From Bacillota bacterium (lineage in GTDB: Bacteria > Bacillota > Sulfobacillia > JAJZYS01 > JAJYTV01): a DNA stretch of 64,000 bases. The first letter of the stretch is position 1. Every line of letters begins with the position of its first letter. A program made the position numbers and the translations under genes. Positions 20,466 to 51,870 of the stretch are shown one piece after another. The notes beneath the pieces are model-generated. The model was not told where the DNA came from. It saw only the letters and a list, made by a program, of their open reading frames with translations, and searched no databases. The DNA is taken from positions 430 through 64,429 of the forward strand of contig JAJZQO010000007.1 in NCBI GenBank assembly GCA_021847575.1, written 5' to 3'.

Positions 20466-20500
20466 GTTGTGCCCCCCACCTTCACCGTTCCTTAGCCCCG

Positions 20501-20533: not shown

Positions 20534-20551
20534 GCACCTTCCGGTTGGCTC

Positions 20552-21868: not shown

Positions 21869-21884
21869 CTCGTCCGCTCCTTTT

Positions 21885-23054
21885 CTAGGACACCCTCGCG
21901 CCCACCCCGGGCGTGAGCCGCGCCGCCCGCAGGTAGGTCGTACCGTCGAGCAGCAGGCGGGCGGTGCGCAGATAGCCGGCCCGCACGATCTCGATCTCCC
22001 GGCCCGCGACCCTGACCTCCACCTCCACCTCCATTCGCCCGCTGGGATGGCCGATGCGCAGGAGGGCGTCCTGCGCGGGGCGCGCCACCTCGTAGGCCAC
22101 CGTACCCGGGATGCGGGCACCCACGGCGAGCGTGACGCTCGCCGCGCCGGGGAAGGCCTTGTGCAGCGTCAGCGGCTGACCGCCGTTGACCTGCGCCGCG
22201 ATGTCCATCGCGTCCGCCGACACCTCGCCCGTGCCGACCACGAGCGGGTACTGGTGCGGCGCGGCCACCAGGATCGGGATCGGCGTGAGCCGGCCCTCGG
22301 GCACGCCGACGTGCCGCGCGACCGCGCGCTGCAGGAGATCCGTGCGCCGCAGGGCCTCCTCGTCCGGTGCCGAAGGCAGGCGCGCCGGGTCCAGGCCGAG
22401 TTCTTCGGCCCGCACCATGAAGCAGAGGTTCGCGATGTCGACGATCGACACCGTGACGGTGCCGAGCCCATCCACCTGCAGGCGGTCCTGCACGTTGCCG
22501 GTGGGCAGGAGGCGACCGGTGGTGCTGCCCGCCGTCAGGCGGTAGTCCATGCGGACCCTGGCGCCTGTGCCGGGCACGCCGTCGATCGCGAGGTCTCCCT
22601 CGACGGCCGCGTGCCCGGCCACGACCGGCACATCCGAGAGCAGGACGGTCCTTGTGTTGTGGTTGTAGATGCGCACCTGCGTCCAAGGTTCGACCGCTGC
22701 CACGAGCCCCTTCTCGATCGCGTACACGCCCACGGCCGCCGAGATGTTGCCGCACAGCATGTCGAAGTGCACCTGCGCGGTATGGGTCCCGACCTGCGCG
22801 AAGGTGTAGTCGATGTCGGCTCCAGGCACGGAAGGGGCGCCGACGATCGCCACCTTGCTCGTCAGAAGGTCTGCGCCGCCGAGACCGTCGATCTGCCTGG
22901 GATCGGGGCTGCCCATCAGCGCCAGGAGGAACTGTGCGCGCTCCGCCTCCCCGGCCGGCACCGCGGACTCCGGCAGGAACACGGCCTTGCTCGTACCGCC
23001 GCGCATGATGGTGCAGGGCACCGCGGTCATCTCCGTACCGTACGCGCTGCTCAT
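21885..23054 (-). CDS. PrpF family isomerase (methylitaconate isomerase/PrpF/LigU-like)
   Basis: MRGGTSK, GSPDPRQIDGLGG..LTSKVAIV, CGNISAAVG, IGHPSG, RTAR. Confidence 0.9.
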   Translation of the reverse strand: MSSAYGTEMTAVPCTIMRGGTSKAVFLPESAVPAGEAERAQFLLALMGSPDPRQIDGLGGADLLTSKVAIVGAPSVPGADIDYTFAQVGTHTAQVHFDMLCGNISAAVGVYAIEKGLVAAVEPWTQVRIYNHNTRTVLLSDVPVVAGHAAVEGDLAIDGVPGTGARVRMDYRLTAGSTTGRLLPTGNVQDRLQVDGLGTVTVSIVDIANLCFMVRAEELGLDPARLPSAPDEEALRRTDLLQRAVARHVGVPEGRLTPIPILVAAPHQYPLVVGTGEVSADAMDIAAQVNGGQPLTLHKAFPGAASVTLAVGARIPGTVAYEVARPAQDALLRIGHPSGRMEVEVEVRVAGREIEIVRAGYLRTARLLLDGTTYLRAARLTPGVGARVS

Positions 23055-23073
23055 GACAGCCCCTCCCTATCGC

Positions 23074-24216
23074 CTACAGCGTCAGGATGTTGACGGTGCA
23101 GGCCGTGCCCTCGACACCGCGCGCCTTGCCGCCGCGGCAGTGCGCCAGCCCGACCTTCAGCCCCTGCACCTGGCGGTCGCCCGCCTCGCCGCGCAGCTGC
23201 TTGACGATCTCGATGACCTGCGCGACGCCTGTGGCGCCCAAGGGGTGCCCCTTGCCGAGCAGGCCGCCGCTCGTGTTCACCGGCAAACGGCCGCCGAGAC
23301 TGGCCTCGCCGCGCTCCACGGCCTTCGGGTACTCGCCGAACGGGAAGAGGTGCAGCCCTTCGATGCGCGTCGTCTCCGCGATCGAGAAGCAGTCGTGCAC
23401 CTCGGCCATCTGGATGTCCTCGGGCCCCAGCCCCGCCTGCTCGTACGCCGCGAGCGCCGTCCGCCAGGTCAGGTCCTCCCTGGTCATGTCGACGAGCCCA
23501 ACCTCCATCCGCCCGCTGCGCAAGGCGGACGCCACAAGCCGCACGGTCCGCGCCTGGCCGAGCTGCCGGCGCTTCTTCTCGCTCACGAGCACGACGGCGG
23601 CCGCCCCGTCGGAGACGGGCGCGCACTCGTCGCGGTGCAGGGGTTCGGCGATCAACGGGCCCGCAAGGACCTCGTCCACGCTGATCGGCTTCTTGAACTG
23701 GGCGAGCGGGTTGAGCGAGGCGTTGAACTTGTTCTTGGCGGCGATCGCGGCGAGCTGGCGCGGCGTCGTGCCGTACTGCTCGAAGTGCCTGCGGGCCCGC
23801 ATCGCGTAGACCGACGGCATGGTCAGCCCGATCTGCGCCTCGATATCGCTCTCGTCGGGCTGCAGCGCACCGCGGAACTTGGTCGAGAGGTGCTCGACGC
23901 CAACCGCCAGCACCATGTCGTAGGCGCCCGCCCGCAGCGCGGTCGCGGCCTCGAAGATCGCGGTCGAGCCGCTCGAGCAGGCGTTCTCCACGTTGGTGAT
24001 CGGCAGGCCCGAGAGACCGGCCGCGCCGAGTGCGCGCTGGCCCATCGCCATGCCCTGGTAGACGTGTCCGACCCATGCCGCCTCGATATCCATCGTGCCG
24101 ACCCCGGCATCGTCCAGCGCGCCCAGGATCGCCTCCGCGGCGAGATCCGCCGCGGAGCGGTCCGGGTGCTTGCCGAACGCGGTCATGCCGACGCCGGCGA
24201 TGTAGACGCCTTCCAT
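23074..24216 (-). CDS. SCP-x/BbsB-type thiolase
   Basis: ENACSSGS, EVHDCF, GHPLGATG; adjacent DUF35 partner. Confidence 0.88.
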   Translation of the reverse strand: MEGVYIAGVGMTAFGKHPDRSAADLAAEAILGALDDAGVGTMDIEAAWVGHVYQGMAMGQRALGAAGLSGLPITNVENACSSGSTAIFEAATALRAGAYDMVLAVGVEHLSTKFRGALQPDESDIEAQIGLTMPSVYAMRARRHFEQYGTTPRQLAAIAAKNKFNASLNPLAQFKKPISVDEVLAGPLIAEPLHRDECAPVSDGAAAVVLVSEKKRRQLGQARTVRLVASALRSGRMEVGLVDMTREDLTWRTALAAYEQAGLGPEDIQMAEVHDCFSIAETTRIEGLHLFPFGEYPKAVERGEASLGGRLPVNTSGGLLGKGHPLGATGVAQVIEIVKQLRGEAGDRQVQGLKVGLAHCRGGKARGVEGTACTVNILTL

Positions 24217-24228
24217 CGCGCCGCCTCC

Positions 24229-24636
24229 TTACTTCTGGACGGGCCTGGCGTGGACGAGCGGCACGAGATTGCCTGCCTCGACGCGCGGGCCGTCTTCCAT
24301 CGCGAGTTCGACCTTGTCCCCGATCTGCGGCTCCGCCGTGTCGGACAAGGGCATCAGTACCCGCACGTCCTGCGGGAAGTCGACATAGACGAGCACGTAC
24401 GGCGGCTTGAACTCCGGCGTCGAGCGGTGCACGCGGCTCCAGGTGTAGACGGTGCCCTCGGGCCCGAGCAGGAGCTTATCCCCGCCCCGGTGGCCACAGC
24501 GCGCGCAGACGGCCTGCGGCGGGTAGAACGCGGCACCGCACTGCGGGCAGCTGCTGCCGACGAGGCACAGCCGCCCTCCCTCGTACTCGAAGACATCCGG
24601 GCCGTGGACCTCGGGTGCGCTCTTCATCTCCGACAC
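24229..24636 (-). CDS. DUF35 Zn-ribbon/OB-fold thiolase partner (BbsA-like)
   Basis: CPQCG..FYPP...CARCG, GTVYTWSRV, PPYVLVYVD. Confidence 0.88.
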   Translation of the reverse strand: MSEMKSAPEVHGPDVFEYEGGRLCLVGSSCPQCGAAFYPPQAVCARCGHRGGDKLLLGPEGTVYTWSRVHRSTPEFKPPYVLVYVDFPQDVRVLMPLSDTAEPQIGDKVELAMEDGPRVEAGNLVPLVHARPVQK

Positions 24637-24668
24637 TCTGTCCCCTTCCTTCTCTGTGGCTGCAGCCG

Positions 24669-25418
24669 CTAGTAGGCTCCTACGCTGCGACCGCCGCAGA
24701 CGTAGATGACCTGCCCGTTGATGTAGCCGGAGTCGTCGTCGGCGAAGAAGGCGACGGCATCGGCCACCTCCTCCGGTCTGCCGACGCGCTGCACCGGTAC
24801 GGTCTTCGCCATGCGCTCCTGGTGTTCGGGCTTTAGGGCCCTGTAGAGCGGCGTGTCGATGAGGCCCGGCGCGACTGCGTTCGTCGTGATCTGGTAGCGC
24901 CCGCTCTCCAGCGCGAGCGTGCGCGTCAGGCTGACGATGCCGCCCTTCGACGCGCTGTAGTTGACCTGGCCGGCGCCGCCGAGCCAGGCGCGCGACGCGA
25001 TGTTGACGATGCGGCCGTACTGCTTCTCGATCATCACGCGCGTCGCGGCACGCGCGAGCAGGAAGGCGGACTTGAGGTTGACGCGGATGACGTCGTCGAA
25101 CATCTCGTCGGTCATCTTCGTGAGATAGGCGTCCCTGGCGATGCCGGCGTTGTTCACGAGGATGTCGAGCGTGCCGAACGTCTTGACCGCGTGCTCGACC
25201 GCCGCGTCGGCCACCTCCGCCTGGGAGATGTCGCCGACGAACGCGGAAACCGTGAAGCCCTCCTGGCGCAGGGTCTGCTCGATCTCCTGCGCCCGCTCCG
25301 CGGCGACGTCGTTCAGCACGACCTTGGCCCCCGCCTGGCAGAGGCGCCTCGCGATCGCCGCCCCGATGCCCTGGCCGCTGCCGGTGACCAGTGCGACCCT
25401 CTGCTGCATGCCCTTCAT
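24669..25418 (-). CDS. Short-chain dehydrogenase/reductase (hydroxyacyl-CoA dehydrogenase-like)
   Basis: TGSGQGIG, NNAG, YSASK; Asp at the end of beta2 suggests NAD. Confidence 0.88.
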   Translation of the reverse strand: MKGMQQRVALVTGSGQGIGAAIARRLCQAGAKVVLNDVAAERAQEIEQTLRQEGFTVSAFVGDISQAEVADAAVEHAVKTFGTLDILVNNAGIARDAYLTKMTDEMFDDVIRVNLKSAFLLARAATRVMIEKQYGRIVNIASRAWLGGAGQVNYSASKGGIVSLTRTLALESGRYQITTNAVAPGLIDTPLYRALKPEHQERMAKTVPVQRVGRPEEVADAVAFFADDDSGYINGQVIYVCGGRSVGAY

Positions 25419-25437
25419 GCCGACCGCCCCTTTCCTG

Positions 25438-26220
25438 TCACTGTCCGGTGAACTGCGGCTCGCGCTTCTCGACGAAGGCGCGCATGCCTTCCTCGCGATC
25501 GCGCGACTTGCGCAGGATCGCGTGGCTCTGCGCCTCGAACGCGAGCCCTGACGCGAGGTCGGTACTCTCCGCCACGTAAACGCACTGCTTGATCGCCGCG
25601 ATGGAGAGCGGAGCCCGCTTCGCCATCGCCGCCGCCCACGCCAGGCTGGCCTCGTCGAGCTCGCCCTGCTCCACGACCTTCTCGACGAGTCCCCACTGCA
25701 GCGCCTGGTCGGCGCCGATGCGTTCCCCGGAGAACATCAGACTCATCGCCCTGCCTGGTCCGACCAGCCGCGGCAGGCGCTGCGTGCCGCCGGCGCCGGG
25801 CAGGCTGCCGACGTTCGCCTCAGGGAAGCCGAACTTCGCCGTGCGGTCTGCGATGCGCAGATCGCAGGCCAGGGCGAGCTCGAGGCCGCCGCCCAGCACG
25901 TAGCCGGCGAGCGCGGCGATCACGGGCTTCGACATGCTCTCGATGTAGGCAAAGAGCTCCCGGATGATCACGCCCAGGGGATCCCGCAGGGCGCCCGCCT
26001 CGTACTCGGCGACCCGACCCTTGATGTCCGCCCCGACCGAGAACGCCTTCGGCTGCCCTGCCAGCACCACCGCCCGCACGTCGCCGTCGAGGTCTAGCTC
26101 GCCCAGCATGCGCCTGAGGTCCGCGAGCATCTCCGGCGTGAGCGCGTTCAGGGCCGACTCGCGGTTGATCCTGATGCGCGCCACCTTGTCGTGCCGCTCC
26201 AGCTGCAGGAGTTCGTCCAT
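25438..26220 (-). CDS. Enoyl-CoA hydratase (crotonase family)
   Basis: [20 protein letters not shown]...[12 protein letters not shown]; both catalytic Glu present. Confidence 0.9.
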
Positions 26221-26265
26221 CGCATTGGCCTCCTCAAGAGATTGCCTGCCTAAAGCGCAGGCGGA

Positions 26266-27504
26266 TCAGGACCTGCCTTGCGCCTGCGCGGCCTCGTCCA
26301 GGTCCTGCGCCGCCCGCACGGCCCCGCGCTCGAGGAGGTCCCTGATCTCCTCCGGCGCGCAGCCGATCTCCACCAGGATCTGCCGGCTGTGCTCCCCGAC
26401 GAGCGGCGCCGGCCCGGCCGGCTGCGCGGGCGACTCGGCCAACAGCGCGGGCACCGCGACGCCTGGCACCGCGCCGAGCACAGGGTGCGTCAGCTGCGGG
26501 AAGCGCCCAGGGTTCATCACGTGCGGCAGGGCCGCGAGAGCGTCGAAGTCCAGCACCTGCGCGCAGAGGATGTCCTCCCGCTCGAGGATCTCGACCCACT
26601 CGCCCGTGCTGCGCACGCGAAAGTACCCACTCAATGCCTCGTACAGCGCGGGGCGGTTCTCCACCCTGCTGGCGACGTCCTTGAAGCGGGGATCCGTCGC
26701 CAGGTCCGCTGCGCCCAGCAGGCGCGTGAGGCGAGCCCAGCGGTCAGGCCAGTAGGCGGCCACCATCAGGAAGCCGTCCTGCGTGGGGTAGACCTCGTTC
26801 GGCGCCGAGTAGGGGGCGGCGCTCCCCATGCGCCCTGGCGACTTGCCGCTCGCGAGGTACATCGACCAGGGCACGGTCTGGAAAAAAAGGAGGCTCTGCA
26901 GGAGCGAGACGTCCACGCGTTGCCCGCGGCCGGTCTGTGTCCTGTGCAACAGCGCCAGCAGGATGCCCTGCACCGCGTTCATCGCGGCCACCATGTCCGC
27001 GGCCGGCACCCCGACCTTCACCGGCTGGCCGGCAGGCTCGCCGGTAATGCTCATCAGCCCGCTCATCGCCTGCACGATGCCGTCGACCCCTGGCTTGTCG
27101 CGCCAGGGCCCGTCCTGCCCGAAGGCGGTGATGGCGCAGTAGACGAGCTCCGGGTGCTCGCGCGAGAGTTCCTCGTAGCCGAGGCCGAGCCTGGCCATGA
27201 CCCCTGGCCTGAAGCTCTCCAGGACGACATCGGCGCCCCGCGCCAGGCGGCGCACGATCTCGGGGCCCTCCGGCGACTTGAGGTTGACCGCGATCGAGCG
27301 CTTGTTGCGGTTCATGCCGAGGTATGCGGCGGCGTCCTCGCCGAGGAAGGGTGGGCCAAGCCTGCGGCCCCACTCCCCCTCCGGCGGGTCCACCTTGGTC
27401 ACCTTGGCACCGTAGTCGCCCAGGATCATCGCGGCCGTCGGGCCGGCCGCGCCCTGCGAGAGGTCGAGGACGGTGATCCCCTCAAGGACCGACGGACTCG
27501 GCAT
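26266..27504 (-). CDS. Class III (CaiB/BaiF) CoA transferase
   Basis: LDLS..AGP, NRNKRS, ESFRPG, QAMSGLMSITG, catalytic D in PAADM. Confidence 0.9.
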   Translation of the reverse strand: MPSPSVLEGITVLDLSQGAAGPTAAMILGDYGAKVTKVDPPEGEWGRRLGPPFLGEDAAAYLGMNRNKRSIAVNLKSPEGPEIVRRLARGADVVLESFRPGVMARLGLGYEELSREHPELVYCAITAFGQDGPWRDKPGVDGIVQAMSGLMSITGEPAGQPVKVGVPAADMVAAMNAVQGILLALLHRTQTGRGQRVDVSLLQSLLFFQTVPWSMYLASGKSPGRMGSAAPYSAPNEVYPTQDGFLMVAAYWPDRWARLTRLLGAADLATDPRFKDVASRVENRPALYEALSGYFRVRSTGEWVEILEREDILCAQVLDFDALAALPHVMNPGRFPQLTHPVLGAVPGVAVPALLAESPAQPAGPAPLVGEHSRQILVEIGCAPEEIRDLLERGAVRAAQDLDEAAQAQGRS

Positions 27505-28048
27505 GCAGCGTCCCTCCCTGCGCCATGGCCATCAGCTCCCAGCCCCTGGCCACCGCGATCCGGTTCACGCCGCTGAACCCCTTGGGCGCCCGGCGCTGCG
27601 CCGCCTCCTGCAGAACCGCGCAGGGGATCCGCTCCAGCACGACGCCGACCGCGCCGAGCGCGAGCATGTTGGCGACGATCTTCTCCCTCAGCTCCAGGCG
27701 CGCCGTCCGCTCAAAGGGCAGCACCCAGGCGCTCTGGGGGGCGGCGACCCGCACGCGGTCCCTGTCCACGATCGCGACGGCCTGCGCCTCCAGCTTGGGG
27801 CTGAAGCGGTCCCACGCCTTCTGGCTGAGCGCCAGCAGGACCTGCGGCGCAGCGAACCAGGGGTTGGCGACCGGCTGGTCCGAGAGGGTGACGTCGGCGC
27901 GGCTGGCGCCGCCACGCGCCTCGGGTCCGTAGGACTGCATGATCGTGGCGTAGAGCCCGGCCTGCAGCGCGGCGTCGGCGAGCACCATCGCCGCCAGCCC
28001 CAAACCCTGTCCACCCGAGCCGGCGAGACGGATCTCCTTGCGCCACAT
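27482..28048 (-). CDS. korC: 2-oxoacid:ferredoxin oxidoreductase gamma subunit
   Basis: EIRLAGSGGQG, QSYGPEARGGAS, NMLALG. Confidence 0.85.
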   Translation of the reverse strand: MWRKEIRLAGSGGQGLGLAAMVLADAALQAGLYATIMQSYGPEARGGASRADVTLSDQPVANPWFAAPQVLLALSQKAWDRFSPKLEAQAVAIVDRDRVRVAAPQSAWVLPFERTARLELREKIVANMLALGAVGVVLERIPCAVLQEAAQRRAPKGFSGVNRIAVARGWELMAMAQGGTLHAESVGP

Positions 28049-28050
28049 GG

Positions 28051-28887
28051 CTAGGTCTCCTTCCTCTTGTAGCCCGGTAGCCCGAGGGACTCCTCGAACG
28101 CCGGACGGCTGTCCTCGGACAGCACCCCGATCGGCTGCGTCTCCCGCACCTGCCAGCCCTCCCCGGGTCGCAGCGAAGGCCACTCGGAGAGGTCCCGCGA
28201 GACCTCCTCGTCGGAGCGGGATTGCGTGAACAGGAGGTCCGAGCCGCCGCCGAGGGAGTTCTTGCGCCCGAAGTACTCGGTGCAGTCGGTCATCACCTCG
28301 ACGAACGAGAAGCCGCGGTGGTCGAGCGCCCTCTCGAGCACCTCCTCGAGCGCGTCCGGGCGGAAGGCCTGGCCGCGCCCGACGAAGGAGGCGCCGGCCG
28401 CAGTGGCCAAGGCGGCGGCGTCGAAGTGCGGTTCGGTGTTGCCGGCTGGGCTCGTCGTGGTGAAGGCCTCTCGCACGGTGGTCGGGGCGAGCTGGCCGCC
28501 CGTCATTCCGTACGTCTCGTTGTTGAAGAGAATGCAGGTGAGATCGATGTTGCGGCGCGCCGCGTGGATCAGGTGGTTGCCGCCGATGCCGAGGCCGTCC
28601 CCGTCGCCCGTGACCACGATCACCTTGAGCTCCGGGCGGGCCAGCTTGAGGCCGGACGCGAACGTCAGCGCGCGCCCGTGCGTGGTGTGCAGGGTATTGG
28701 CGTCGATGTAGCCGACAATGCGGCTCGAGCAGCCGATGCCCGCCACGAGCGCAACGTTGTTCAGGTTGTCGTAGCGCCTCGCGAGGACGCGCAGCATGGT
28801 GTTCATCACGATGCCGTGCCCGCAGCCCGGGCAAAGGATGTGCGGCATCATCTCCCGCCGCAGGAGTGCCTTCGCGGTCGTCGTCAT
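28051..28887 (-). CDS. korB: 2-oxoacid:ferredoxin oxidoreductase beta (TPP) subunit
   Basis: CPGCGHG, GIGCSSR, HTTHGRA, GDGDG..IGGNH.IHAARRN, YGMTGGQ. Confidence 0.88.
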   Translation of the reverse strand: MTTTAKALLRREMMPHILCPGCGHGIVMNTMLRVLARRYDNLNNVALVAGIGCSSRIVGYIDANTLHTTHGRALTFASGLKLARPELKVIVVTGDGDGLGIGGNHLIHAARRNIDLTCILFNNETYGMTGGQLAPTTVREAFTTTSPAGNTEPHFDAAALATAAGASFVGRGQAFRPDALEEVLERALDHRGFSFVEVMTDCTEYFGRKNSLGGGSDLLFTQSRSDEEVSRDLSEWPSLRPGEGWQVRETQPIGVLSEDSRPAFEESLGLPGYKRKET

Positions 28888-30026: not shown

Positions 30027-30027
30027 G

Positions 30028-30885
30028 TCACGCACCTCCCGCCAGGTGCAGGAGGTCGCTCTCCTGCTCACGTACGACGTCGATGGCGAAGTCGGGGCAC
30101 AGCTTCTCGCAAATCCGGCAGCCGGTGCAGCGCTCGGGCGCCGTCGGCCGCGCGATCTCCAGCGCGTCGAGCTGCCAGATCCGCTCCGGGCAGACGTCGA
30201 CGCAGATGCTGCAGCCCTTGCACCACGCCTCCTCGAGCTGCAGCCTGAAGCGCGCCTGCTGCGTCGGGGAGCTGTGCAGGGGCTTCGGCGGTGCGGTGTC
30301 CTGCCAGGCGCGGCCGAGCTCGAAGGCCCGCAGGTTGGCCTCGAGCGCCTTCTTGGGCACCCAGCGCCCGAGCGCGTCGCGCCAGGCCGCGACGGGAAAG
30401 CCGAGCTCGGTCGAGAGCGCGCCGAGCAGCACGACGCCGGCCGTCTTGACGTTGCCTGCCTCTTTCGCCAGCGACTCCGCGTCGACCGCGCGCACTCTGG
30501 GATGCTCGAACGCGGCGAGCGGGTAGTTCACGCCGCCCGCGACGCGGTCCCGCTGCGCGGCCGGCGGCAGGATGCGCTCAGAGCTTGCGAAGACGAGTCC
30601 GTCCGGTGCGAGCAGGGGCAGCCAGCGCAGGGCCTCCGCCCACTCGAAGCCGAGCACGTACTGCAGGCTGCCCTGCTCGATCACCACGTTGTGGACCTCC
30701 GGGCCGAAGCGCACCTGCGCCGAGACGGAGCCGCCGCGCTGCGACATGCCGTGGACCTCGGCCTTCTTGACGTCCAGGCCGTGGCTGAGGCAGAGGTCTG
30801 CGATGATGTTGCCGGCCAGCACCACTCCCTGGCCGCCGACGCCGGCGATGACGACGTTCCCCTGCTGCGGCACCTTGGCTTGCAT
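30028..30885 (-). CDS. iorB: Indolepyruvate/arylpyruvate oxidoreductase beta subunit fused to a C-terminal 2[4Fe-4S] ferredoxin (KorD-like)
   Basis: GVGGQG, EVHGMSQRGGSV..VRFG; C-terminal CKGCSICVDVCP and CTGCRICEKLCPDFAI. Confidence 0.85.
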   Translation of the reverse strand: MQAKVPQQGNVVIAGVGGQGVVLAGNIIADLCLSHGLDVKKAEVHGMSQRGGSVSAQVRFGPEVHNVVIEQGSLQYVLGFEWAEALRWLPLLAPDGLVFASSERILPPAAQRDRVAGGVNYPLAAFEHPRVRAVDAESLAKEAGNVKTAGVVLLGALSTELGFPVAAWRDALGRWVPKKALEANLRAFELGRAWQDTAPPKPLHSSPTQQARFRLQLEEAWCKGCSICVDVCPERIWQLDALEIARPTAPERCTGCRICEKLCPDFAIDVVREQESDLLHLAGGA

Positions 30886-30907
30886 GGCCATCCTCCTTCC
30901 CACTGCC

Positions 30908-32704
30908 CTATCCCCGCGACGCCGGAGCGATGGCGAGGTGCGGGCAGATCTGGGCGCAGACCGTGCAGCCCGTGCACTGGTCGGGGTCGATGCGGACCCT
31001 GTGGCGGTTCTCGTAGGGCTCCGCCTCAAGGTCCCAGCCGAGGGCCGGGCAGCCCGTGTTCATGCACAGCTGGCAGCCGACGCAGCGCCCCGGGTCGATC
31101 TCGTAGCGCCGCCCGACGAGCTTGTCGGGCGCCTGCACGCAGGGCCGGCTCGTGATCACGACCGACACGCCGCGGCTGCGGGTGGCCGCGAGCAGGGTGC
31201 GGTGCACCGCGCCCACGTCGTAGGGGTCCACCGCCACGACCGGGTCCGCGCCGAGCGCCCGGCAGACCCCCGCCAGGTCGATGCGCGCGGTCTCCGTGCC
31301 GCGGACGTTCGCGCCGAACTCCACCGTCGGCTGGCCCCCGGTCATGGCGGCGACGCCGTTGTCGAGGATCACGACGGTGAGGTCGGCCTGGTTCCAGACC
31401 GCGTCCGCCAGGGCGGGAACGCCGCCGTGCAGGAAGGTCGAGTCGCCGATCGCGGCGACGATCGGGTGCTGCTTGAGGCCTGCCTTCCACATGCCGACCG
31501 CCATGCCGATGCTCGATCCCATCGAGACGCAGGTGTCCATCGCGCGCAGCGGCTCCGAGGCGCCGAGCGTGTAGCAGCCGATGTCGCCGCTGACGTAGGC
31601 CTCGAGCTCCCGCAGGACCATGAACGGCGTCACGTGCGGGCAACCCGGGCAGAGCACGGGCGGGCGCGCGACGGCCGCCGGCCAGTCCTGCGCGGCAGGA
31701 GCCTGCTGCGGCGCGAGGACGCCTGCGGCGATGAAGCCCTTGCGCACCAGCTCAGGGGTAAGCTCGCCGGCCTGCGGGAAGAAGGTCTTGCCCTCGACCG
31801 CCAGGCCGAGCGCCTTGACGGCGTCCTCGAGATAGGGGTCCGTCTCCTCCACGACGAACAGCCGGTCCACTTTGCCGGCGAAGGCGCGGATCCGCTCCTT
31901 GGGCAGGGGATGCGTGATGCCGAGCTTGAGCACGCTCGCATCGGGCAGCACCTCGCGCACGTGCTGGTAGGAGATGCTCGAGGTGATGACGCCGACTGCG
32001 GTGTCGCGCATCTCCTCGCGCGTGAAGGGGTGCTGCTCGCACCAGGCGGCGAGACGCCCAAGCCGCTCGAGCAGCCGCTCCCGGCCCATGCGGGCGTAGA
32101 CCGGCAGCATGACGTACTTCGCGGGGTTGCGCTCGAAGCTGCGCTCACCCGGCGCCTCGGCGGCCGAGGGCAGAACGCGCGAGCGCGAATGCGAGACGCG
32201 CGTCGTCGTGCGCACGAGGCACGGCGTGTCGAACTGCTCGCTGACGCGGTATGCCTCGCGCATGAAGTCGTAGATCTCCTGGCTGTCGGACGGCTCGAAC
32301 ATCGGCACACCGGCAAACTTGCCGAGGTAGCGGCTGTCCTGCTCGTTCTGCGAGCTGTGCATGCCGGGGTCGTCCGCGCAGAGCAGGACGAGCCCGCCGT
32401 TGACGCCGACGAGCGGCGATGTCATCCAGGCGTCCATCGCCACGTTGAGGCCGACGTGCTTCATCGTCACCAGCACCCGCGCACCCGCCAGGGAGGCGCC
32501 GATGCCTTCGTCCAGGGCCACCTTCTCGTTGGTGGCCCACTGCACCTGAACCGACTCGGGCGCGATGCGGGCCATGTGCTCGATGATCTCCGTGGACGGG
32601 GTTCCGGGATAGCCTGTGGCCACCCGCACCCCTGCATGAAGCGCTCCCAACGCCACCGCCTCGTTGCCGAGCAGGAGCTGCTGGGTCGAGACCTCTGTCG
32701 CCAC
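30908..32704 (-). CDS. iorA: Indolepyruvate/arylpyruvate:ferredoxin oxidoreductase alpha subunit
   Basis: LLGNEAVA, GYPGTPSTEI, NEKVA, MKHVGLNVA, DDPGMHSSQNEQDSR, CPGCPH, GDIGCY, C-terminal ferredoxin. Confidence 0.9.
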   Translation of the reverse strand: MATEVSTQQLLLGNEAVALGALHAGVRVATGYPGTPSTEIIEHMARIAPESVQVQWATNEKVALDEGIGASLAGARVLVTMKHVGLNVAMDAWMTSPLVGVNGGLVLLCADDPGMHSSQNEQDSRYLGKFAGVPMFEPSDSQEIYDFMREAYRVSEQFDTPCLVRTTTRVSHSRSRVLPSAAEAPGERSFERNPAKYVMLPVYARMGRERLLERLGRLAAWCEQHPFTREEMRDTAVGVITSSISYQHVREVLPDASVLKLGITHPLPKERIRAFAGKVDRLFVVEETDPYLEDAVKALGLAVEGKTFFPQAGELTPELVRKGFIAAGVLAPQQAPAAQDWPAAVARPPVLCPGCPHVTPFMVLRELEAYVSGDIGCYTLGASEPLRAMDTCVSMGSSIGMAVGMWKAGLKQHPIVAAIGDSTFLHGGVPALADAVWNQADLTVVILDNGVAAMTGGQPTVEFGANVRGTETARIDLAGVCRALGADPVVAVDPYDVGAVHRTLLAATRSRGVSVVITSRPCVQAPDKLVGRRYEIDPGRCVGCQLCMNTGCPALGWDLEAEPYENRHRVRIDPDQCTGCTVCAQICPHLAIAPASRG

Positions 32705-32730
32705 GTTCTTCCCTCCCCGGTCCGCTCCGC

Positions 32731-33975
32731 CTAGACCGACGCGCTGTGCTGCAGCTGGCCGATCGTCGCCAGAATCTCCGCGTCCGTGAGGACGTGGTCG
32801 GTCGCCTTGGCCAGGCCCAGCACGGCCGCGAGCCGCTCCGGCGTGGCCTCGACGCCATGGTCCTTGAGCCAGAACTCGGCGTTCGAGCGACCGCTCATCG
32901 GGCCGATCTTGATCGCCTGCCGCCGGCCGACGAGCGCCGCCGGCACGGAGCTGTAGACCCGGTCCGCCAGCCACTGGTCGCCCTTCTGGTACGCCTTCGC
33001 GACGGCCGCCGCGTGTACGCCGGTGCTCGTGGCGAACGCGTCCTCGCCCATCACGGGGTAGTTGCGCGGCAGCTCGGAGCGCGTCATCTCGACGGCCAGG
33101 CGACAGTATTCGGCGAGCGTGCTGAGGTCCTGGTCGAGCCAGCCCAGCATCACGAGGTTGACGAGCACCGTGTCCATGGCCGCGTTGCCGACCCGCTCGC
33201 CGATGCCCGCCGCGCAGGCGTGCACGCGCGTGGCGCCCGCCGCCAGGGCGGCCAGGCTGTTGATCACGTCGAGGCCGCGGTCGCGGTGGCCGTGCCAGTC
33301 GATCTCCGGAGTGACGCCGCGGCGCTCCAGGCTCGCCTTGACGAACTGCACGAGCCGCTGCGTGCCGGACGGCGTCGCGTGGCCCACCGTGTCGGCGACG
33401 CAGAAGCGCTTCGCCCCCGCGTCCGCCGCCGCGCCATACATCGCCTCGATATCGGCCGGGCGGGCGCGGGTGGTGTCCTCCGTCACGAACATCACTTCGA
33501 GACCCTCGCGTGTCGCGAGGCCGACGGCCTCGTCGATGGTGTGCAGGAGCCGCTCCAGCGTCCAGCCCTCGACCCACTGCCGGATCGGGCTGGAACCGAT
33601 GAACAGGGCCGCCTGGATTGGCACGCCGGTTTCCTGCTGCGCGCGCACCATCGGCATGATGTCCGCCTGGTGCGTGCGCCCGGCGCAGTTGGGGCTGACC
33701 GGCAAGTGCTCGTCGCGGATCAGGCGGGCGAGGCGCACCACGTCGCCGTAGGCCTGCTCGCTCGCGCCGGGGTAGCCGATGTTGGCCGAACCGATGCCCA
33801 GGGCAGGCAAGAGGCGCACGAACGCCTCCTTCTCGGCGATCGTCGGCTGGCGCACGGACGGGCTCTGCAACCCGTCGCGCAGCGTCTCGTCGTTCAGCTC
33901 GACGCGGCTCGGCCGCGTGAGGTCGGCGGTGAGCGGCTGGACCTCGTTCCAGTCGTGCAGCAGCGGCGATTCCAT
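32731..33975 (-). CDS. LeuA-family (DRE-TIM) acetyl-CoA:2-oxoacid condensing enzyme lacking the regulatory domain
   Basis: DETLRDGLQ, HGHRDRG, GIGERVGN, GVHA; only 414 aa. Confidence 0.85.
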   Translation of the reverse strand: MESPLLHDWNEVQPLTADLTRPSRVELNDETLRDGLQSPSVRQPTIAEKEAFVRLLPALGIGSANIGYPGASEQAYGDVVRLARLIRDEHLPVSPNCAGRTHQADIMPMVRAQQETGVPIQAALFIGSSPIRQWVEGWTLERLLHTIDEAVGLATREGLEVMFVTEDTTRARPADIEAMYGAAADAGAKRFCVADTVGHATPSGTQRLVQFVKASLERRGVTPEIDWHGHRDRGLDVINSLAALAAGATRVHACAAGIGERVGNAAMDTVLVNLVMLGWLDQDLSTLAEYCRLAVEMTRSELPRNYPVMGEDAFATSTGVHAAAVAKAYQKGDQWLADRVYSSVPAALVGRRQAIKIGPMSGRSNAEFWLKDHGVEATPERLAAVLGLAKATDHVLTDAEILATIGQLQHSASV

Positions 33976-33997
33976 GGCCTAACCTCCTCGCATCCCG

Positions 33998-35284
33998 TCA
34001 GCGGGCGTAGGTGAGCTTGCGGCGGTCGACCACACGGACTGCCTTGCCCTCGCTGCGGGGAATGCTGAGCGGATCCATGACGGCAACCATGACGCTCACG
34101 CCGAGCACCTCGTTGAGCCTGCGCTGCACCGCCGCCGCCAGCACCCCGCGCTCGGCCTCGGTCTCGCGCGGCTCCACGTGGACCTCGAGCACGTCGAGCG
34201 CCTGGTGGCGGTCGAGCACGAGCTGGTAGACGGGCGCCAGGGCATCCATGTCGAGCAGCGCGGACTCCACGTCGCGCGGGAAGAGGTTCACGCCGCGCAG
34301 CGTGAACATGTCGTCGACGCGCCCGAGGATGTGGTCCATGCGCCGCGTCGTCCGGCCGCACTCGCAGCTGCCAGGGATGACGCGCGTGATGTCGCCTGTG
34401 CGGTAGCGCACGACGGGCGAGGCCTCGCGCCGCAAGGCGGTCAGCACGAGCTCGCCGAGCGTGCCGTCCGGGACCGGCTTGCCAGTCTGCGGATCGATGA
34501 CTTCGAAGTAGAAGAGGTCTTCCGAGACGTGCAGGCCCTTGTGCCCCTCGGCGCATTCGCTCGCGACGCCCGGACCGATGATCTCCGCCAGGCCGTAGAC
34601 GTCGAGCGCCGTGATGCCCATCTCGCTCTCGATCTCGTCGCACATCTGCTGCGACCAGGCCTCGGCGCCGAAGACGCCGACGCGCAGGCTCATCTCGTCC
34701 TTGGCCACGCCCATCTGCCGCATGACCTCTGCGATGTGCTGGCCGTAGGACGGTGTGCAGGTGAGGACCGTCGCCTTGAGGTCGCGCAGCATCGTCACCT
34801 GGCGCTGCGTCTGGCCGCCGGAGATGGGCAGGACCGTCACACCAGTCTCGAGTGCCGCGTAGTGGAAGCCGAGGCCGCCGGTGAAGAGGCCGTAGCCGTA
34901 GGCGTTGTGCACGATGTCGCCACGGTGCACGCCGGCCCGCTGCAGGACGCGCTTCATGGCCGTGCGCCAAAGCTGCAGGTCACTGGCGGTGTAGCCCGTG
35001 ACTACGGCGGAGCCCGTCGTGCCGGAGGAGGCATGCAACTCCATGACATCCGTGAGCGGCACGCCGATCGCGCTGGGGTAGGGCTGTGCGCGCAGGTCCG
35101 CCTTGTTCGTCGTCGGCACCAGCGCGATGTCCTCCGGCGTCCGGATGGCGTCCGGGTCGACATCCCTCAGCCGTTCCGCGTAGAACGGCATGGTGCGCTT
35201 CACCCGCCGCACGGTCTCGCGGAACAGCTCGATCTCCTTGGCGGCCAGTTCGCTCTGCGGAACCCTCTCGTCGTCCCAGTCCAT
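33998..35284 (-). CDS. paaK: Phenylacetate-CoA ligase
   Basis: HASSGTTG, AYGYGLFTGGLGFHY, FGAEAW, YGLAEIIGPGVA, RYRTGD, RSEGKA. Confidence 0.9.
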   Translation of the reverse strand: MDWDDERVPQSELAAKEIELFRETVRRVKRTMPFYAERLRDVDPDAIRTPEDIALVPTTNKADLRAQPYPSAIGVPLTDVMELHASSGTTGSAVVTGYTASDLQLWRTAMKRVLQRAGVHRGDIVHNAYGYGLFTGGLGFHYAALETGVTVLPISGGQTQRQVTMLRDLKATVLTCTPSYGQHIAEVMRQMGVAKDEMSLRVGVFGAEAWSQQMCDEIESEMGITALDVYGLAEIIGPGVASECAEGHKGLHVSEDLFYFEVIDPQTGKPVPDGTLGELVLTALRREASPVVRYRTGDITRVIPGSCECGRTTRRMDHILGRVDDMFTLRGVNLFPRDVESALLDMDALAPVYQLVLDRHQALDVLEVHVEPRETEAERGVLAAAVQRRLNEVLGVSVMVAVMDPLSIPRSEGKAVRVVDRRKLTYAR

Positions 35285-35304
35285 GCCCGACACCCCTCTC
35301 TCCG

Positions 35305-35826
35305 TCACTCGGCCGTCGACCCTTGGTCCGCGGCGATCGCGCGCAGCATCGGCACGATGCCTCCGCGCGCGAGGACCGCAAGCATCTCCGGCGGAATCCT
35401 TTCGGCCTGAAGGGCCGTCCCGTCGGAGCGAACCACCTCCCCCGCGACCACATCGACCGCGACTATCTCCCCGTCCTGGACAAGCCCGCCGACGCCCTGG
35501 CAGGTCAGAACGGGCAGTCCGATGGCGATGGCGTTGCGCGCGAAGATGCGCGCGAACGACTCCGCCACCACGACCGCCACGCCGAGGTCCTTGAGGTGCT
35601 GCGGTGCGGATTCGCGACTCGACCCGACGCCGAAGTTGCGCCCGCCGACGACGATATCCCCGTGCCGCACCCCAGACGCGAAGTCCGGACGGACCGCCTC
35701 GAGCACGTGGCGCAGGCGCTCGGCCATGGGCGCGTGCACGTACGGGCCCGGCGAGAGGACGTCCGTCGAGATGTTGTCGCCGAGCAGCCAGGCCCTGCCG
35801 CGCAGCACCGGGAACAGATCGCTCAT
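35305..35826 (-). CDS. LeuD/HacB/DmdB family dehydratase small subunit
   Basis: GDNISTD, NFGVGSSRE, SFARIFARNA. Confidence 0.88.
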   Translation of the reverse strand: MSDLFPVLRGRAWLLGDNISTDVLSPGPYVHAPMAERLRHVLEAVRPDFASGVRHGDIVVGGRNFGVGSSRESAPQHLKDLGVAVVVAESFARIFARNAIAIGLPVLTCQGVGGLVQDGEIVAVDVVAGEVVRSDGTALQAERIPPEMLAVLARGGIVPMLRAIAADQGSTAE

Positions 35827-37055
35827 GACGGCACCCCCTCGGCCGCAAGCCCTGCGAGCAAGGATCTGGGGTCCGCGATCTCGCCCGCGATCGCCGTCGC
35901 GGCAGCCGTGAGGGGCGACGCGAGGTAGATCTCGGCGTCCGGGCTGCCCATGCGCCCCTGGAAGTTGCGGTTGTGCGTGCCGAGACAGCGCTCTCCCGGC
36001 GCCAGGAGTCCGAGGTGGCCACCGAAGCAGGGGCCGCAGCTGGCCCCCTCCACGATCGCGCCTGCCGCGACCAGGGCGTCCAGGATCCCTTCCTGCATCG
36101 CCTGCCGGTAGATCTCGCGCGAGGCCGGCGTGACGACGAGGCGCACTCCTGGTGCGATCTGCCTGCCCTGCAGCAGCGAGGCCGCGTCCCGCAGATCCTG
36201 CAGGCGCCCGTTGGTGCACGAGCCGATGAACACCTGGTCGATCCGCGTGCCGACCATCTCCTGGACCGGTCGCACGTTCTCGACGTGGTGCGGGCACGCA
36301 ACCATCGGTTGCAGGCTGGAAAGGTCGACGCTGTAGCTGGCCGCGTAGGCCGCACCCTGCGGCAGGTCCTCGCCCGGCGGGAAGACGGCGAACTTCGAGC
36401 CCATCTCGACCCCCATGTTGCAGACCGTGAGCCTGTCGGCGAGGGTAAGGGACGAGGTGCCGGGACCGCGGAACTCGAGCGAGCGCGCCTGCGCGATGTC
36501 GGAACCGACGATGCGCATCAGGGCGAGGATCAGATCCTTGCCGGAGGTGGCGGGTGCAAGCCGCCCGCTCAGGCGGATCAGCACGCTCTCCGGCACCTTG
36601 AACCAGAGCGTGCCGGTCGCGAGCGCGTACGCCATCTCGGTCGAGCCGATGCCAGTGCTCAGCGCGCCTACGCCGCCGTAGGTGGTGGTGTGGGAGTCGG
36701 TGGCGACGACGAGGTCGCCCTCGCGCACGCGCTTTTCCTCCACCATCACCTGGTGCGAGACGCCGCGCCCCATCTCGTGGAAGTTCGCGATACCGTACCG
36801 CCGCGCGAGCTCGCGCGCCGTCCTCTGGTGGGCGGCTGCGGCCACCGAGGGCGGCGGCACCATGTGGTCGAAGACGACCGTCACCCGCGACGGGTCGTGC
36901 AGTTCCCTGATGCCCACCTCTGCCAACAGGCCGAGCACGTCCGCCGCGAAGATGTCGTGCATCATGAAGCCGTCCGGCCGCGCGACAACGTACTCGCCGG
37001 CCACTGCCTTCTCAAGTCCGGACTTCTTGGCCAGAATCTCCTCTGCCCAGGTCAC
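35823..37055 (-). CDS. LeuC/HacA/DmdA family aconitase-type dehydratase large subunit
   Basis: DH..P, DSHTTTYG, TVCNM, IGSCTNGR, CGPCFG, NRNFQGRMG. Confidence 0.88.
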   Translation of the reverse strand: MTWAEEILAKKSGLEKAVAGEYVVARPDGFMMHDIFAADVLGLLAEVGIRELHDPSRVTVVFDHMVPPPSVAAAAHQRTARELARRYGIANFHEMGRGVSHQVMVEEKRVREGDLVVATDSHTTTYGGVGALSTGIGSTEMAYALATGTLWFKVPESVLIRLSGRLAPATSGKDLILALMRIVGSDIAQARSLEFRGPGTSSLTLADRLTVCNMGVEMGSKFAVFPPGEDLPQGAAYAASYSVDLSSLQPMVACPHHVENVRPVQEMVGTRIDQVFIGSCTNGRLQDLRDAASLLQGRQIAPGVRLVVTPASREIYRQAMQEGILDALVAAGAIVEGASCGPCFGGHLGLLAPGERCLGTHNRNFQGRMGSPDAEIYLASPLTAAATAIAGEIADPRSLLAGLAAEGVPS

Positions 37056-51845: not shown

Positions 51846-51870
51846 GGTCCGAGCCAGAGGAGGGTTACCC

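Follow-up and report, generated by a model that had tools for sequence, protein, structure and literature searches.

What do relatives of the leucine-pathway enzymes do in a run of genes whose other half resembles the beta-oxidation of benzylsuccinate, and how does such a run manage with neither a LeuB-type nor an acyl-CoA dehydrogenase? The question is raised by a stretch of 64,000 nucleotides from contig JAJZQO010000007.1 of the Bacillota bacterium assembly GCA_021847575.1, here called the window, and in particular by its positions 21885-37055, which an earlier note had described as a tightly packed, co-directional set of genes for a candidate undescribed route from arylacetates or arylpyruvates to benzoyl-CoA. 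The window has a G+C content of about 70%, so that raw lists of open reading frames (ORFs) are crowded; genes were called from codon usage together with a third-position G+C plot, and were named with Pfam and NCBIfam. All of the genes listed in the note were recovered on the minus strand with the correct coordinates, and the run is indeed tight and co-directional, the gaps between its genes being -23 to +104 bp (overlaps of at most 23 bp), but it is longer than had been supposed. It continues without interruption from 17806 to 40801 and comprises 21 genes, all on the minus strand. In the order of transcription these encode three subunits resembling HcrC, HcrA and HcrB (37052-40801, upstream of the LeuC-like gene and inside the run), LeuC- and LeuD-like proteins, a PaaK-like ligase, a LeuA-like synthase, IorA, an IorB-ferredoxin fusion, the alpha, beta and gamma subunits of a 2-oxoacid oxidoreductase, a CoA-transferase, a crotonase, an SDR protein, a DUF35 protein, an SCP-x-type thiolase and a PrpF-family protein, followed at the 3′ end by an MFS transporter, a thioredoxin-reductase-like flavoprotein and a benzoate-CoA ligase family protein (17806-21868). 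The three-subunit oxidoreductase and the ferredoxin domain fused to IorB had been overlooked. No gene of the run has an Iso_dh (LeuB-type) or an acyl-CoA dehydrogenase domain in Pfam, as the note had stated.

Our results suggest that the run encodes a peripheral pathway that would channel aromatic acids into the adjacent benzoyl-CoA pathway by a benzylmalate/phenylitaconate mechanism, a reading to which we give about an even chance of being correct. The LeuA-like synthase would condense phenylpyruvate or 4-hydroxyphenylpyruvate with acetyl-CoA to a product of the 2-benzylmalate type, the LeuCD-like enzyme would dehydrate this to benzylmaleate, and an isomerase resembling Mii would bring about an allylic shift of the double bond to give phenylitaconate (benzylidenesuccinate). 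The family III CoA-transferase would then form the CoA ester, with succinyl-CoA as the donor, and the hydratase, the SDR protein and the DUF35/thiolase pair would act like BbsH, BbsCD and BbsAB to yield (4-hydroxy)benzoyl-CoA and succinyl-CoA. Because the double bond would arise by dehydration and isomerization, an acyl-CoA dehydrogenase is not needed, and because the chain would not be extended to a longer 2-oxoacid, neither is a LeuB-type dehydrogenase. It is the simplest chain in which each core gene has a part and the lack of both dehydrogenases is accounted for. Less surely, the PaaK-like ligase and the indolepyruvate:ferredoxin oxidoreductase (IOR) could admit arylacetates by reductively carboxylating arylacetyl-CoA, the second oxidoreductase could provide low-potential electrons and succinyl-CoA and may feed IOR or the Hcr-like enzyme, the Hcr-like enzyme could strip off the 4-hydroxy group, and a downstream enzyme like class I benzoyl-CoA reductase could reduce the ring. 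The same mechanism had been proposed in the earlier note, and it is consistent with the genomic and family evidence given below; the substrates of the module enzymes, like the direction of IOR, are what we infer from that evidence, and the proposal had left out the second oxidoreductase.

The gene content and packing of the run are established by the gene calls, and its conservation by a comparison with other genomes. Sixty-eight loci were fetched with the LeuA-like protein (flanks of 10 kb, median locus length 16.5 kb) and the window proteins were placed on them by tblastn; those in which the LeuA-like gene is joined by two or more other members with identities of at least 40% are called module loci. 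There are 37 of these, and the supposition that the genes form a unit elsewhere is thus borne out in several phyla: the module loci belong to Bacillota, Actinomycetota and Armatimonadota, and the 68 loci as a whole to Bacillota, Actinomycetes, Acidimicrobiia, Gaiellaceae, Armatimonadota and others. Among the 37 module loci, IorA is found in 32, the oxidoreductase alpha subunit and the DUF35 protein in 31 each, the thiolase in 30, the CoA-transferase in 28, the hydratase and the SDR protein in 26 each, the LeuC-like protein in 20, the PrpF-like protein in 18 and the HcrA-like protein in 17. The CoA-transferase, hydratase, SDR, DUF35 and thiolase genes occur together in 23 of the 37, and together with the LeuC-like and PrpF-like genes in nine. 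These counts are lower bounds since contig ends or the 10-kb flank truncate many of the loci; in five out of five loci that end at the thiolase, the next gene downstream in the genome is a PrpF-like one (60-82% identical). Gene order varies between lineages and the set is retained: the LeuCD-like genes precede the LeuA-like gene in Bacillota and Actinomycetes, whereas in Acidimicrobiia the LeuC-like gene follows the SDR gene and the DUF35, thiolase, PrpF-like and HcrCAB-like genes form a divergent operon. Three loci (L022, L028 and L038) hold the synthase, dehydratase and isomerase with four beta-oxidation genes and have neither IOR nor the second oxidoreductase, and we therefore take this set as the core. 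Acyl-CoA dehydrogenase genes are present in only three of the 68 loci, each at least 7 kb from the LeuA-like gene, and LeuB-type genes likewise in three of the 68 but in none of the 37 module loci. Ten ORFs of module loci without a known function were scanned: four have no matches, and the others are a TetR protein, a fusion of a GNAT domain with an acyl-CoA synthetase, a universal stress protein (Usp), a metallo-beta-lactamase-fold protein, a binding protein and family I CoA-transferase subunits, so that no conserved additional member was found among these ten.

The LeuA-like protein (32731-33975; proposed 2-benzylmalate or 4-hydroxybenzylmalate synthase) has 414 residues and a single Pfam domain, HMGL-like (PF00682, 138.6 bits). 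The C-terminal LeuA_dimer regulatory domain that is present in isopropylmalate synthase (IPMS) was not found with Pfam, in agreement with the earlier description. Its metal and substrate motifs (R-D, E-D and H-x-H) align with those of 6ktq and 3rmj and are kept in the 68 loci. The protein is 29% identical to the housekeeping LeuA of the same genome and falls below every NCBIfam synthase cut-off (NF002085, 186.5 vs 517; NifV, 174.5 vs 462.9; CimA, 110.8 vs 450); its best solved homologue is the homocitrate synthase 6ktq, at 120.7 bits. According to Table 1 of PMC12961565, five pocket positions read A/D/A/M/S in HphA (A73, D157, A159, M186 and S242), H/R/T/S/H in homocitrate synthase and L/E/S/N/E in IPMS, and the available part of that paper describes the first of them, an Ala, as decisive for the selectivity of HphA. 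The alignments that we used reproduce the published residues of 6ktq and 3rmj, and in them the pocket of the window protein reads A98/M162/V164/C192/H252. By comparison with the tabulated residues, only the first position equals that of HphA, and the Arg and Thr of homocitrate synthase, which acts on an acidic polar substrate, are replaced by Met and Val. A98, M162 and V164 are kept across the loci.

The proposed 2-benzylmalate dehydratase consists of a LeuC-like large subunit of the aconitase family (35823-37055; Pfam Aconitase) and a LeuD/DmdB-family small subunit (35305-35826; TIGR02087, 156.5 against a cut-off of 108.95). The large subunit passes NF001614 (499.7, cut-off 385) and the hacA family model (486.2, cut-off 385.7), does not reach the LeuC equivalog models of NCBIfam, and is 42% identical to the housekeeping LeuC encoded on contig C33 of the genome. 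The substrate loop of the small subunit reads YVHA, compared with YLRT in the homoaconitase 2pkp and YLVY in the isopropylmalate/citramalate isomerase 3vba. The PrpF-family protein (21885-23054; PF04303, 315 bits), which we propose as a benzylmaleate/phenylitaconate isomerase, has Mii as its closest solved homologue (3g7k, 262.4 bits), ahead of LigU (199.7) and PrpF itself (164.8), in line with the comparison to Mii drawn in the earlier note. In the alignment its K67 and C101 correspond to K62 and C96 of Mii (chain 3g7k_A), which we take to be the catalytic Lys/Cys pair. The protein lies below the NCBIfam equivalog cut-offs for OMA tautomerase and PrpF. Apart from the module loci, a 4.9-kb contig labelled as Chlamydiales (L050) carries LeuA-like (46%), LeuC- and LeuD-like (35%) and PrpF-like (41%) genes together, and represents the module's front end in a more distant form.

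The second half of the module was compared with the Bbs proteins, which are the closest solved homologues of three of its members. The SDR protein (24669-25418; proposed 2-(hydroxy(aryl)methyl)succinyl-CoA dehydrogenase) has BbsD as its best solved homologue (7pcs_B, 238.6 bits), with the next full-length solved match at 196.9 bits; it is the single SDR gene of the run, in which a BbsC-like second subunit was not found. The SCP-x-type thiolase (23074-24216; proposed aroylsuccinyl-CoA thiolase) is closest to BbsB (7pxp_C, 254.1 bits) and scores 274.6 with the NCBIfam BbsB model NF053628, below its cut-off of 750. For the DUF35 zinc-ribbon/OB protein (24229-24636; Pfam OB_ChsH2_C and zf-ChsH2), BbsA is both the closest solved homologue and the only NCBIfam match (NF053627, 50.7, below 250). 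The family III CoA-transferase (26266-27504; Pfam CoA_transf_3, 416 bits), which would be a succinyl-CoA:phenylitaconate CoA-transferase, is encoded by one gene, in contrast to the two subunits of BbsEF, and among NCBIfam models it scores highest with that of succinate-glutarate CoA-transferase (300.9, below the cut-off of 750). The enoyl-CoA hydratase (25438-26220; Pfam ECH_1, 217.5 bits) is proposed to act on phenylitaconyl-CoA.

A link with benzoyl-CoA metabolism is apparent both in the window and across genomes. A block on the plus strand at 49071-55971, directly preceded by a TetR regulator (48463-49074), encodes two crotonases, a Zn-dehydrogenase, two HGD-D subunits and two BcrAD-type ATPases according to Pfam, and the BcrB model TIGR02260 matches in it over its full length with 310.4 bits, below the cut-off of 486.55; this composition is that of a class I benzoyl-CoA reductase and partners of the dch/had/oah type. 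Full-length BcrB-like matches are found in 34 of the 39 module genomes, and in 16 of the 30 genomes with a stand-alone LeuA-like gene, four of the latter being above the cut-off. In a sample of 151 genomes from the class of one Acidimicrobiia-type locus, BcrB-like proteins occur in 11 genomes and the LeuA-like protein in seven; all seven genomes with the LeuA-like protein have a BcrB-like one, compared with four of the 144 without it (Fisher p = 1e-9, the genomes being related and not phylogenetically independent), and in six of the seven the two genes share a contig, at distances of 13-41 kb. The association is seen in three phyla, and in two loci (L047 and L049) the LeuA-like gene stands among bcr-like genes. 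The co-occurrence named as a test in the earlier note is thus observed at the level of genomes for bcr-like genes.

The genome itself (2.86 Mb in 137 contigs, 99.4% complete) has housekeeping leuA, leuC, leuD and leuB genes on contig C33, so that the LeuA-, LeuC- and LeuD-like genes of the run are extra paralogues beside that set. Its one IorAB is that of the run, and a second oxidoreductase lies elsewhere in it. No pyruvate formate-lyase-like glycyl-radical enzyme was found in it (PF02901, 0 matches), which means that fumarate addition cannot feed the module. The phenylglyoxylate (Pad) pathway, said before to be unrecognizable in the window, is not recognizable in the genome either: the best PadG score is 287 against a cut-off of 700 (67.5 for the window oxidoreductase), no PadI or PadE equivalog was found, and the four PF00384 proteins of the genome (one Fdh-like, one NasA-like and two NuoG) include no PadB-type molybdenum enzyme. 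Aerobic PaaA is present above its cut-off on contig C102, and the organism seems able to process aromatic compounds by aerobic as well as anaerobic routes. Several other features of the genome may be recorded here. A further molybdenum subunit of the XDH family lies a few kb from PaaA (L072, 4201-5118 and 7514-9739), and scores 455.6 with the XdhA model and 437.3 with that of Hcr alpha. Two NuoG-NuoH pairs with nearly equal scores are found on contigs C58 and C92 (L069 and L070), one of which is only 3.5 kb long; they reflect a duplication either of the complex I locus itself or in the assembly. The highest-scoring PF00384 protein of the genome (contig C51, 21018-22289) contains one in-frame TGA, as expected for a selenocysteine formate dehydrogenase.

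The genes around the core bear on what enters the module and in which form. The PaaK-like arylacetate-CoA ligase (33998-35293; Pfam AMP-binding_C_2; TIGR02155, 472.5 below a cut-off of 646.3) lies between the LeuD-like and LeuA-like genes in the window and in L002, L016, L027 and L068, five loci of three lineages in all, and in L016 and L027 it is accompanied by Liv-type ABC genes. This interposition, twice with transporter genes, suggests that imported arylacetates are one entry to the pathway, in which case IOR must run towards arylpyruvate; this reductive direction we infer. IorA (30908-32704; TIGR03336, 641.6, nine bits short of the cut-off of 650.9) is the sole copy in the genome. IorB (30028-30891; Pfam POR; NCBIfam IorB, 184.4 below an equivalog cut-off of 237) carries at its C-terminus a delta-type ferredoxin domain for two [4Fe-4S] clusters (Fer4; matches to OorD, OGOR_delta and PorD_KorD), and the fusion, both cluster motifs and the adjacency to the three-subunit oxidoreductase are kept in 31 of 31 loci. 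That oxidoreductase has an alpha subunit (28884-30026; NF006412, 481.9 above 411; 2-oxoglutarate synthase alpha model, 361.9 below 579), a beta subunit (28051-28887; Pfam TPP_enzyme_C; NF007207, 265.3 below 364) and a gamma subunit (27482-28048; Pfam POR; NF006323, 129.3 below 235), and has no delta gene of its own, the delta-type domain sitting on the neighboring IorB. A physical link between the two 2-oxoacid oxidoreductases is possible on this ground. A predicted complex of the alpha and beta subunits with the ferredoxin domain of IorB (residues 205-287) scored 0.80, and the control in which chain 1 was replaced scored 0.76, so that the prediction speaks neither for nor against binding.

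The Hcr-like enzyme consists of a 2Fe-2S subunit (HcrC-like, 40331-40801; TIGR03193, 151.7 below 257.8), whose gene overlaps the next by 11 bp, a molybdenum subunit (HcrA-like, 38038-40341), for which the best model is TIGR03194 for Hcr alpha (771 below 994.55) and the next is XdhA (483.5), and an FAD subunit (HcrB-like, 37052-38041; Pfam FAD_binding_5 and CO_deh_flav_C) with an extra cysteine loop. The last has as its best solved homologue the beta subunit of 4-hydroxybenzoyl-CoA reductase (1rm6_B, 172.6 bits), with which every cysteine of the loop is aligned, and the [4Fe-4S] loop cysteines are conserved in 17 to 19 of the 19 loci. We take this loop to be peculiar to 4-hydroxybenzoyl-CoA reductase. 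The presence of such an enzyme fits a 4-hydroxy series of substrates derived from tyrosine or 4-hydroxyphenylacetate.

A wider proposal can be built on these neighbors, namely that a widespread arylmalate pathway in anaerobic or facultative Bacillota, Actinomycetota and Armatimonadota converts arylpyruvates to aroyl-CoA and succinate without loss of carbon, arylacetates entering through a coupled pair of oxidoreductases. Because the delta-type domain missing from the three-subunit enzyme is fused to IorB, direct electron transfer to IOR is conceivable: electrons from the oxidation of 2-oxoglutarate could reach IOR directly and enable it to carboxylate arylacetyl-CoA. In sum, a 2-oxoacid and an acyl-CoA would exchange a carboxyl group with no free ferredoxin involved, and the irreversible condensation of the LeuA type would pull the exchange forward. 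In this full form we regard the proposal as rather doubtful.

Several points weigh against the benzylmalate/phenylitaconate reading. The substrate-specific NCBIfam models for LeuA, HCS, CimA, PaaK, BbsA, BbsB and HcrA are all missed. Within the Bbs-like half, the CoA-transferase is nearer to SUGCT (9br6, 256 bits) than to BbsEF (9fn0, 150-154), the hydratase matches only generic crotonases among NCBIfam models and solved structures, and the margins by which the DUF35 protein and the thiolase are closest to their Bbs counterparts are small (BbsA 7pxp_A, 40.6 vs 40.1 bits for 6esq_E; BbsB, 254.1 vs 243.1 for the next). In the synthase, four of the five pocket positions differ from those tabulated for HphA in PMC12961565. 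The same pocket motifs occur in 29 LeuA-like homologues outside any module, and so the pocket is not specific to the module; a Mii-like gene (E <= 1e-60) is present in only three of the 30 genomes with a stand-alone LeuA-like gene, and two of the stand-alone homologues adjoin a LeuB-type gene. The BcrB-like matches of the module genomes are all under the equivalog cut-off, and the kinship among the genomes of the class sample means that the Fisher p overstates the association. As regards the entry of arylacetates, the PaaK-like gene is found in only four of the 37 module loci, and with an aerobic PaaA in the genome both the PaaK-like and the PaaX-like genes could serve an aerobic pathway. IOR enzymes usually work oxidatively, and an oxidative IOR would compete with the synthase for arylpyruvate. 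The second oxidoreductase has to be explained by any model. As for expression, the stretch is present in RNA library X6, which belongs to the study of the likely source sample, and in DNA runs of two further studies; contigs of the X6 library cover 29 of 30 bins of 21001-41000 (the empty bin being 38343-39009), which is a weak hint that the run is expressed, as such libraries may contain DNA.

There may also be no single pathway at all, and the run may be an island of unconnected functions. In that case the ligase and both oxidoreductases, IOR included, would serve the oxidative metabolism of arylpyruvates and the supply of electrons to Hcr and Bcr, the LeuA- and LeuCD-like enzymes a biosynthetic homologation, and the transferase, hydratase, SDR and thiolase the beta-oxidation of a ring-cleavage product. 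Roles of this kind are known for each family, 2-oxoglutarate:ferredoxin oxidoreductase is the electron donor system of the Thauera benzoyl-CoA reductase, and the matches of the run proteins to equivalog models under their cut-offs suit such an explanation. It does not account well for the way in which the LeuA-, LeuCD- and PrpF-like genes and the four beta-oxidation genes stay together despite reshuffling and loss of the oxidoreductases. Homologation, moreover, depends on an enzyme of the LeuB type, and none of the 37 module loci encodes one, housekeeping leu genes are present elsewhere in the genome, and the beta-oxidation of 3-hydroxypimeloyl-CoA needs neither an isomerase of the PrpF/Mii type nor a dicarboxylate CoA-transferase. 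We therefore consider an island of separate functions to be unlikely.

The module may also be a single pathway with the chemistry that we propose, acting on other 2-oxoacids. In one version of this the substrate is a dicarboxylic 2-oxoacid derived from the lower benzoyl-CoA pathway: glutaryl-CoA would be reductively carboxylated to 2-oxoadipate by one of the oxidoreductases, and the product would, after condensation with acetyl-CoA, dehydration, isomerization and a cleavage of the Bbs type, end as two succinyl units, replacing glutaryl-CoA dehydrogenase. By our own reckoning the carbons balance (C5 + C1 + C2 = 2 x C4). Such a role would suit the closeness of the synthase to homocitrate synthase 6ktq (120.7 bits), that of the LeuC-like protein to the homoaconitase family, whose model it passes, that of the CoA-transferase to succinate-glutarate (SUGCT) transferases and that of the second oxidoreductase to 2-oxoglutarate enzymes, and the association with bcr-like genes is equally compatible with a role downstream. 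Ten acyl-CoA dehydrogenases of the genome were scanned, out of 11 PF02770 matches, and the best score with the glutaryl-CoA dehydrogenase model is 285.9, below 470; the only such model met is of the non-decarboxylating type, and the scan says little either way about an enzyme of the decarboxylating type. The pocket speaks against a dicarboxylic substrate, as the H, R and T of homocitrate synthase (as given in Table 1 of PMC12961565) are A, M and V here. In addition, the LeuD-like loop is without the Arg of the homoaconitase 2pkp. That Arg presumably has a functional role. A dicarboxylate pathway also leaves no role for IorAB, the PaaK-like ligase, the ABC and MFS uptake genes or Hcr, all of which are interleaved with the module; L022, L028 and L038 hold the module without either oxidoreductase; and the window encodes a separate 3-hydroxyacyl-CoA dehydrogenase and a classical thiolase next to the bcr genes. 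In view of the hydrophobic pocket, the unused IOR, ligase, uptake and Hcr genes and the persistence of the core without oxidoreductases, we rate the dicarboxylate version lower than the arylmalate one and regard it as quite improbable.

We think it similarly improbable that the substrate is another hydrophobic 2-oxoacid with a methylene group at C3, such as 2-oxoisocaproate, 4-methylthio-2-oxobutanoate, indolepyruvate or 2-oxobutanoate. The scheme is, by our own reasoning, valid for any R-CH2-CO-COOH, and would give an acyl-CoA shorter by two carbons and succinate, the link with benzoyl-CoA then being one of shared islands and not of flux. The pocket is hydrophobic and, on the residues tabulated in PMC12961565, not identical to that of HphA, homologues with the same pocket are found without the module and beside LeuB-type genes, and IOR enzymes, as their family name says, accept indolepyruvate. 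Such a substrate fits less well with the PaaK-like ligase, with the strong genome-level link to BcrB-like proteins (7/7 vs 4/144) or with the interleaving of the module with Hcr-like genes, in which the cysteine loop of 4-hydroxybenzoyl-CoA reductase is preserved, and the loci examined showed neither branched-chain nor methionine genes.

An ordinary Bbs operon for (4-hydroxy)benzylsuccinate formed by addition of fumarate to toluene or p-cresol, although it would suit the closeness of the DUF35, thiolase and SDR proteins to BbsA, BbsB and BbsD and the interpretation of bbsA with bcrBC in Acidimicrobiia as toluene degradation in the available part of PMC12008989, was rejected as extremely improbable, because the 99.4% complete genome has no glycyl-radical enzyme of the pyruvate formate-lyase-like type, the run and 65 of the 68 loci have no BbsG-type acyl-CoA dehydrogenase, the single CoA-transferase is nearer to SUGCT, and the BbsA and BbsB equivalog cut-offs are far from reached.

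The neighbors of the stand-alone LeuA-like genes are mixed, and point to no single function: among 10 ORFs scanned out of 135 listed there are LeuB-type, second HMGL-like, integrase, peptidase, helicase and bcr-like genes. In two loci of the Acidobacteriota type (L048, 6751-7809; L052, 8827-9948), a LeuB-type dehydrogenase gene lies directly upstream of a LeuA-like gene with the same pocket motifs and without the module, and this pair may represent a 2-oxoacid homologation pathway. Two module loci have features of their own. In L008 the Hcr-like and LeuA-like genes are separated by a gene (6450-9029) for a protein of 859 residues in which a GNAT acetyltransferase is fused to an ADP-forming acyl-CoA synthetase-like part, and in L038 (11226-11900) an ORF of 224 residues behind the LeuA-like gene is 51% identical to part of IorA and may be a remnant of a deletion.

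The remaining genes of the run and of the window are less directly connected with the module. The MFS transporter (20552-21868; Pfam MFS_1) has weak matches to aromatic-acid symporter models, and the thioredoxin-reductase-like flavoprotein (19464-20447; Pfam Pyr_redox_2; TIGR01292, 129.8 below 343) could possibly link ferredoxin with NAD(P); tblastn found no counterpart of either in the other LeuA-like loci fetched. The last gene of the run (17806-19467) encodes a benzoate-CoA ligase family protein (TIGR02262, 549.6 above 375.25). A Liv-type ABC transporter and a PAS-LuxR regulator are encoded between the run and the benzoyl-CoA block, which is followed by a PaaX-like regulator (56516-57310, plus strand; Pfam PaaX and PaaX_C; TIGR02277, 163.5 below 264.55), the 3-hydroxyacyl-CoA dehydrogenase, the classical thiolase and a thioesterase. 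Scans of the window for promoters and terminators gave no signal above chance apart from one terminator-like hairpin (16399-16382) downstream of an amidohydrolase gene, and the window contains no tRNA genes and no Rfam matches. Three Amidohydro_2 paralogues with mutual identities of 58-63% are present, two in the window (16587-17423 and 57384-58217) and one on contig C5 of the genome; one of them follows the benzoate-CoA ligase gene, and the same arrangement is seen in L010 and L011. Between 9700 and 16500 the G+C content falls to 0.60-0.63, compared with about 0.70 elsewhere, and the codon-usage caller largely missed four plus-strand ORFs there (10774-12231, 12371-13840, 13837-14937 and 14934-16109), one of which has no Pfam match. 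This stretch may be foreign DNA.

The arylmalate pathway that we propose shares parts with several known systems. With the Bbs pathway it has in common a family III CoA-transferase, a crotonase, an SDR protein and a DUF35/SCP-x-type thiolase pair, and from benzylidenesuccinyl-CoA onward the proposed intermediates are those of the Bbs pathway, as its steps are set out in the available part of PMC10818641. The module differs from it in having no benzylsuccinate synthase and no BbsG, and one transferase and one SDR gene where Bbs has two of each; the unsaturated intermediate, made in the Bbs pathway by a dehydrogenase, would arise here from the LeuA/LeuCD/Mii-type front end. The cyanobacterial HphA/HphCD/HphB system for the homologation of Phe and Tyr likewise has a LeuA-family synthase and a LeuCD-family dehydratase, which in the module are proposed to act on arylpyruvate too, and the window synthase has an Ala at the position of A73 in HphA (numbered as in Table 1 of PMC12961565). 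In contrast to Hph, no module locus has an HphB (LeuB-type) gene, the context beside bcr is catabolic, and the product would be cleaved and not transaminated. DmdAB and Mii in the nicotinate fermentation of Eubacterium barkeri are a LeuCD-family hydratase and, paired with it, a PrpF-family isomerase that shifts the double bond between maleate and itaconate types, and the LeuD-like protein of the window falls within the LeuD/DmdB model TIGR02087. The module would run in the reverse direction, from the malate through the maleate to the itaconate type, and on compounds with an aryl and not a methyl substituent, and Pfam detected no B12 mutase, enamidase or dimethylmalate lyase in the window. With the Pad enzymes (PadBCD and PadEFGHI) the proposed route would share its start at arylacetyl-CoA, its end at benzoyl-CoA and a 2-oxoacid:ferredoxin-type oxidoreductase; it would differ in that the side-chain carbons are converted to succinate, and not to CO2 as by Pad, and in needing no high-potential acceptor. 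The Hcr-like enzyme resembles HcrCAB of Thauera aromatica (1rm6) in its three subunits, the family order of their genes, the closeness of its alpha subunit to the Hcr alpha model and the cysteine loop of its beta subunit, and differs in that neither its alpha nor its gamma subunit reaches the equivalog cut-off (771 vs 994.55 and 151.7 vs 257.8, respectively).

The module would thus combine a beta-oxidation of the Bbs type with a front end of the LeuA/LeuCD/Mii type, and no catabolic route of this kind is described in the full-text literature searched, most subscription journals lying outside it; to this extent the novelty claimed in the earlier note stands. A study of Acidimicrobiia genomes has read bbsA with bcrBC as toluene degradation (PMC12008989), and these genes, so far as the available part of that paper describes them, are probably those of the present module.

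Phenylacetate and 4-hydroxyphenylacetate are major fermentation products of phenylalanine and tyrosine, and the Pad enzymes take both to benzoyl-CoA without oxygen. To our knowledge, the Pad route is documented mainly in denitrifiers. Our prediction spans nine enzymes, and its intermediates are known from the biochemistry of toluene or homophenylalanine or, like benzylmaleate, have been chemically synthesized. The synthesis of authentic standards is credited to Migaud et al. (1996), cited in PMC10818641. If it is true, the module would be a second route for arylacetates and an answer for organisms that lack Pad, and two side-chain carbons would be conserved as succinate in place of being lost as CO2. 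Isomerases of the PrpF/Mii type would acquire an additional role, and the annotation of bbsA and bcr in Acidimicrobiia as genes of toluene degradation, as it appears in the available part of PMC12008989, would be corrected.

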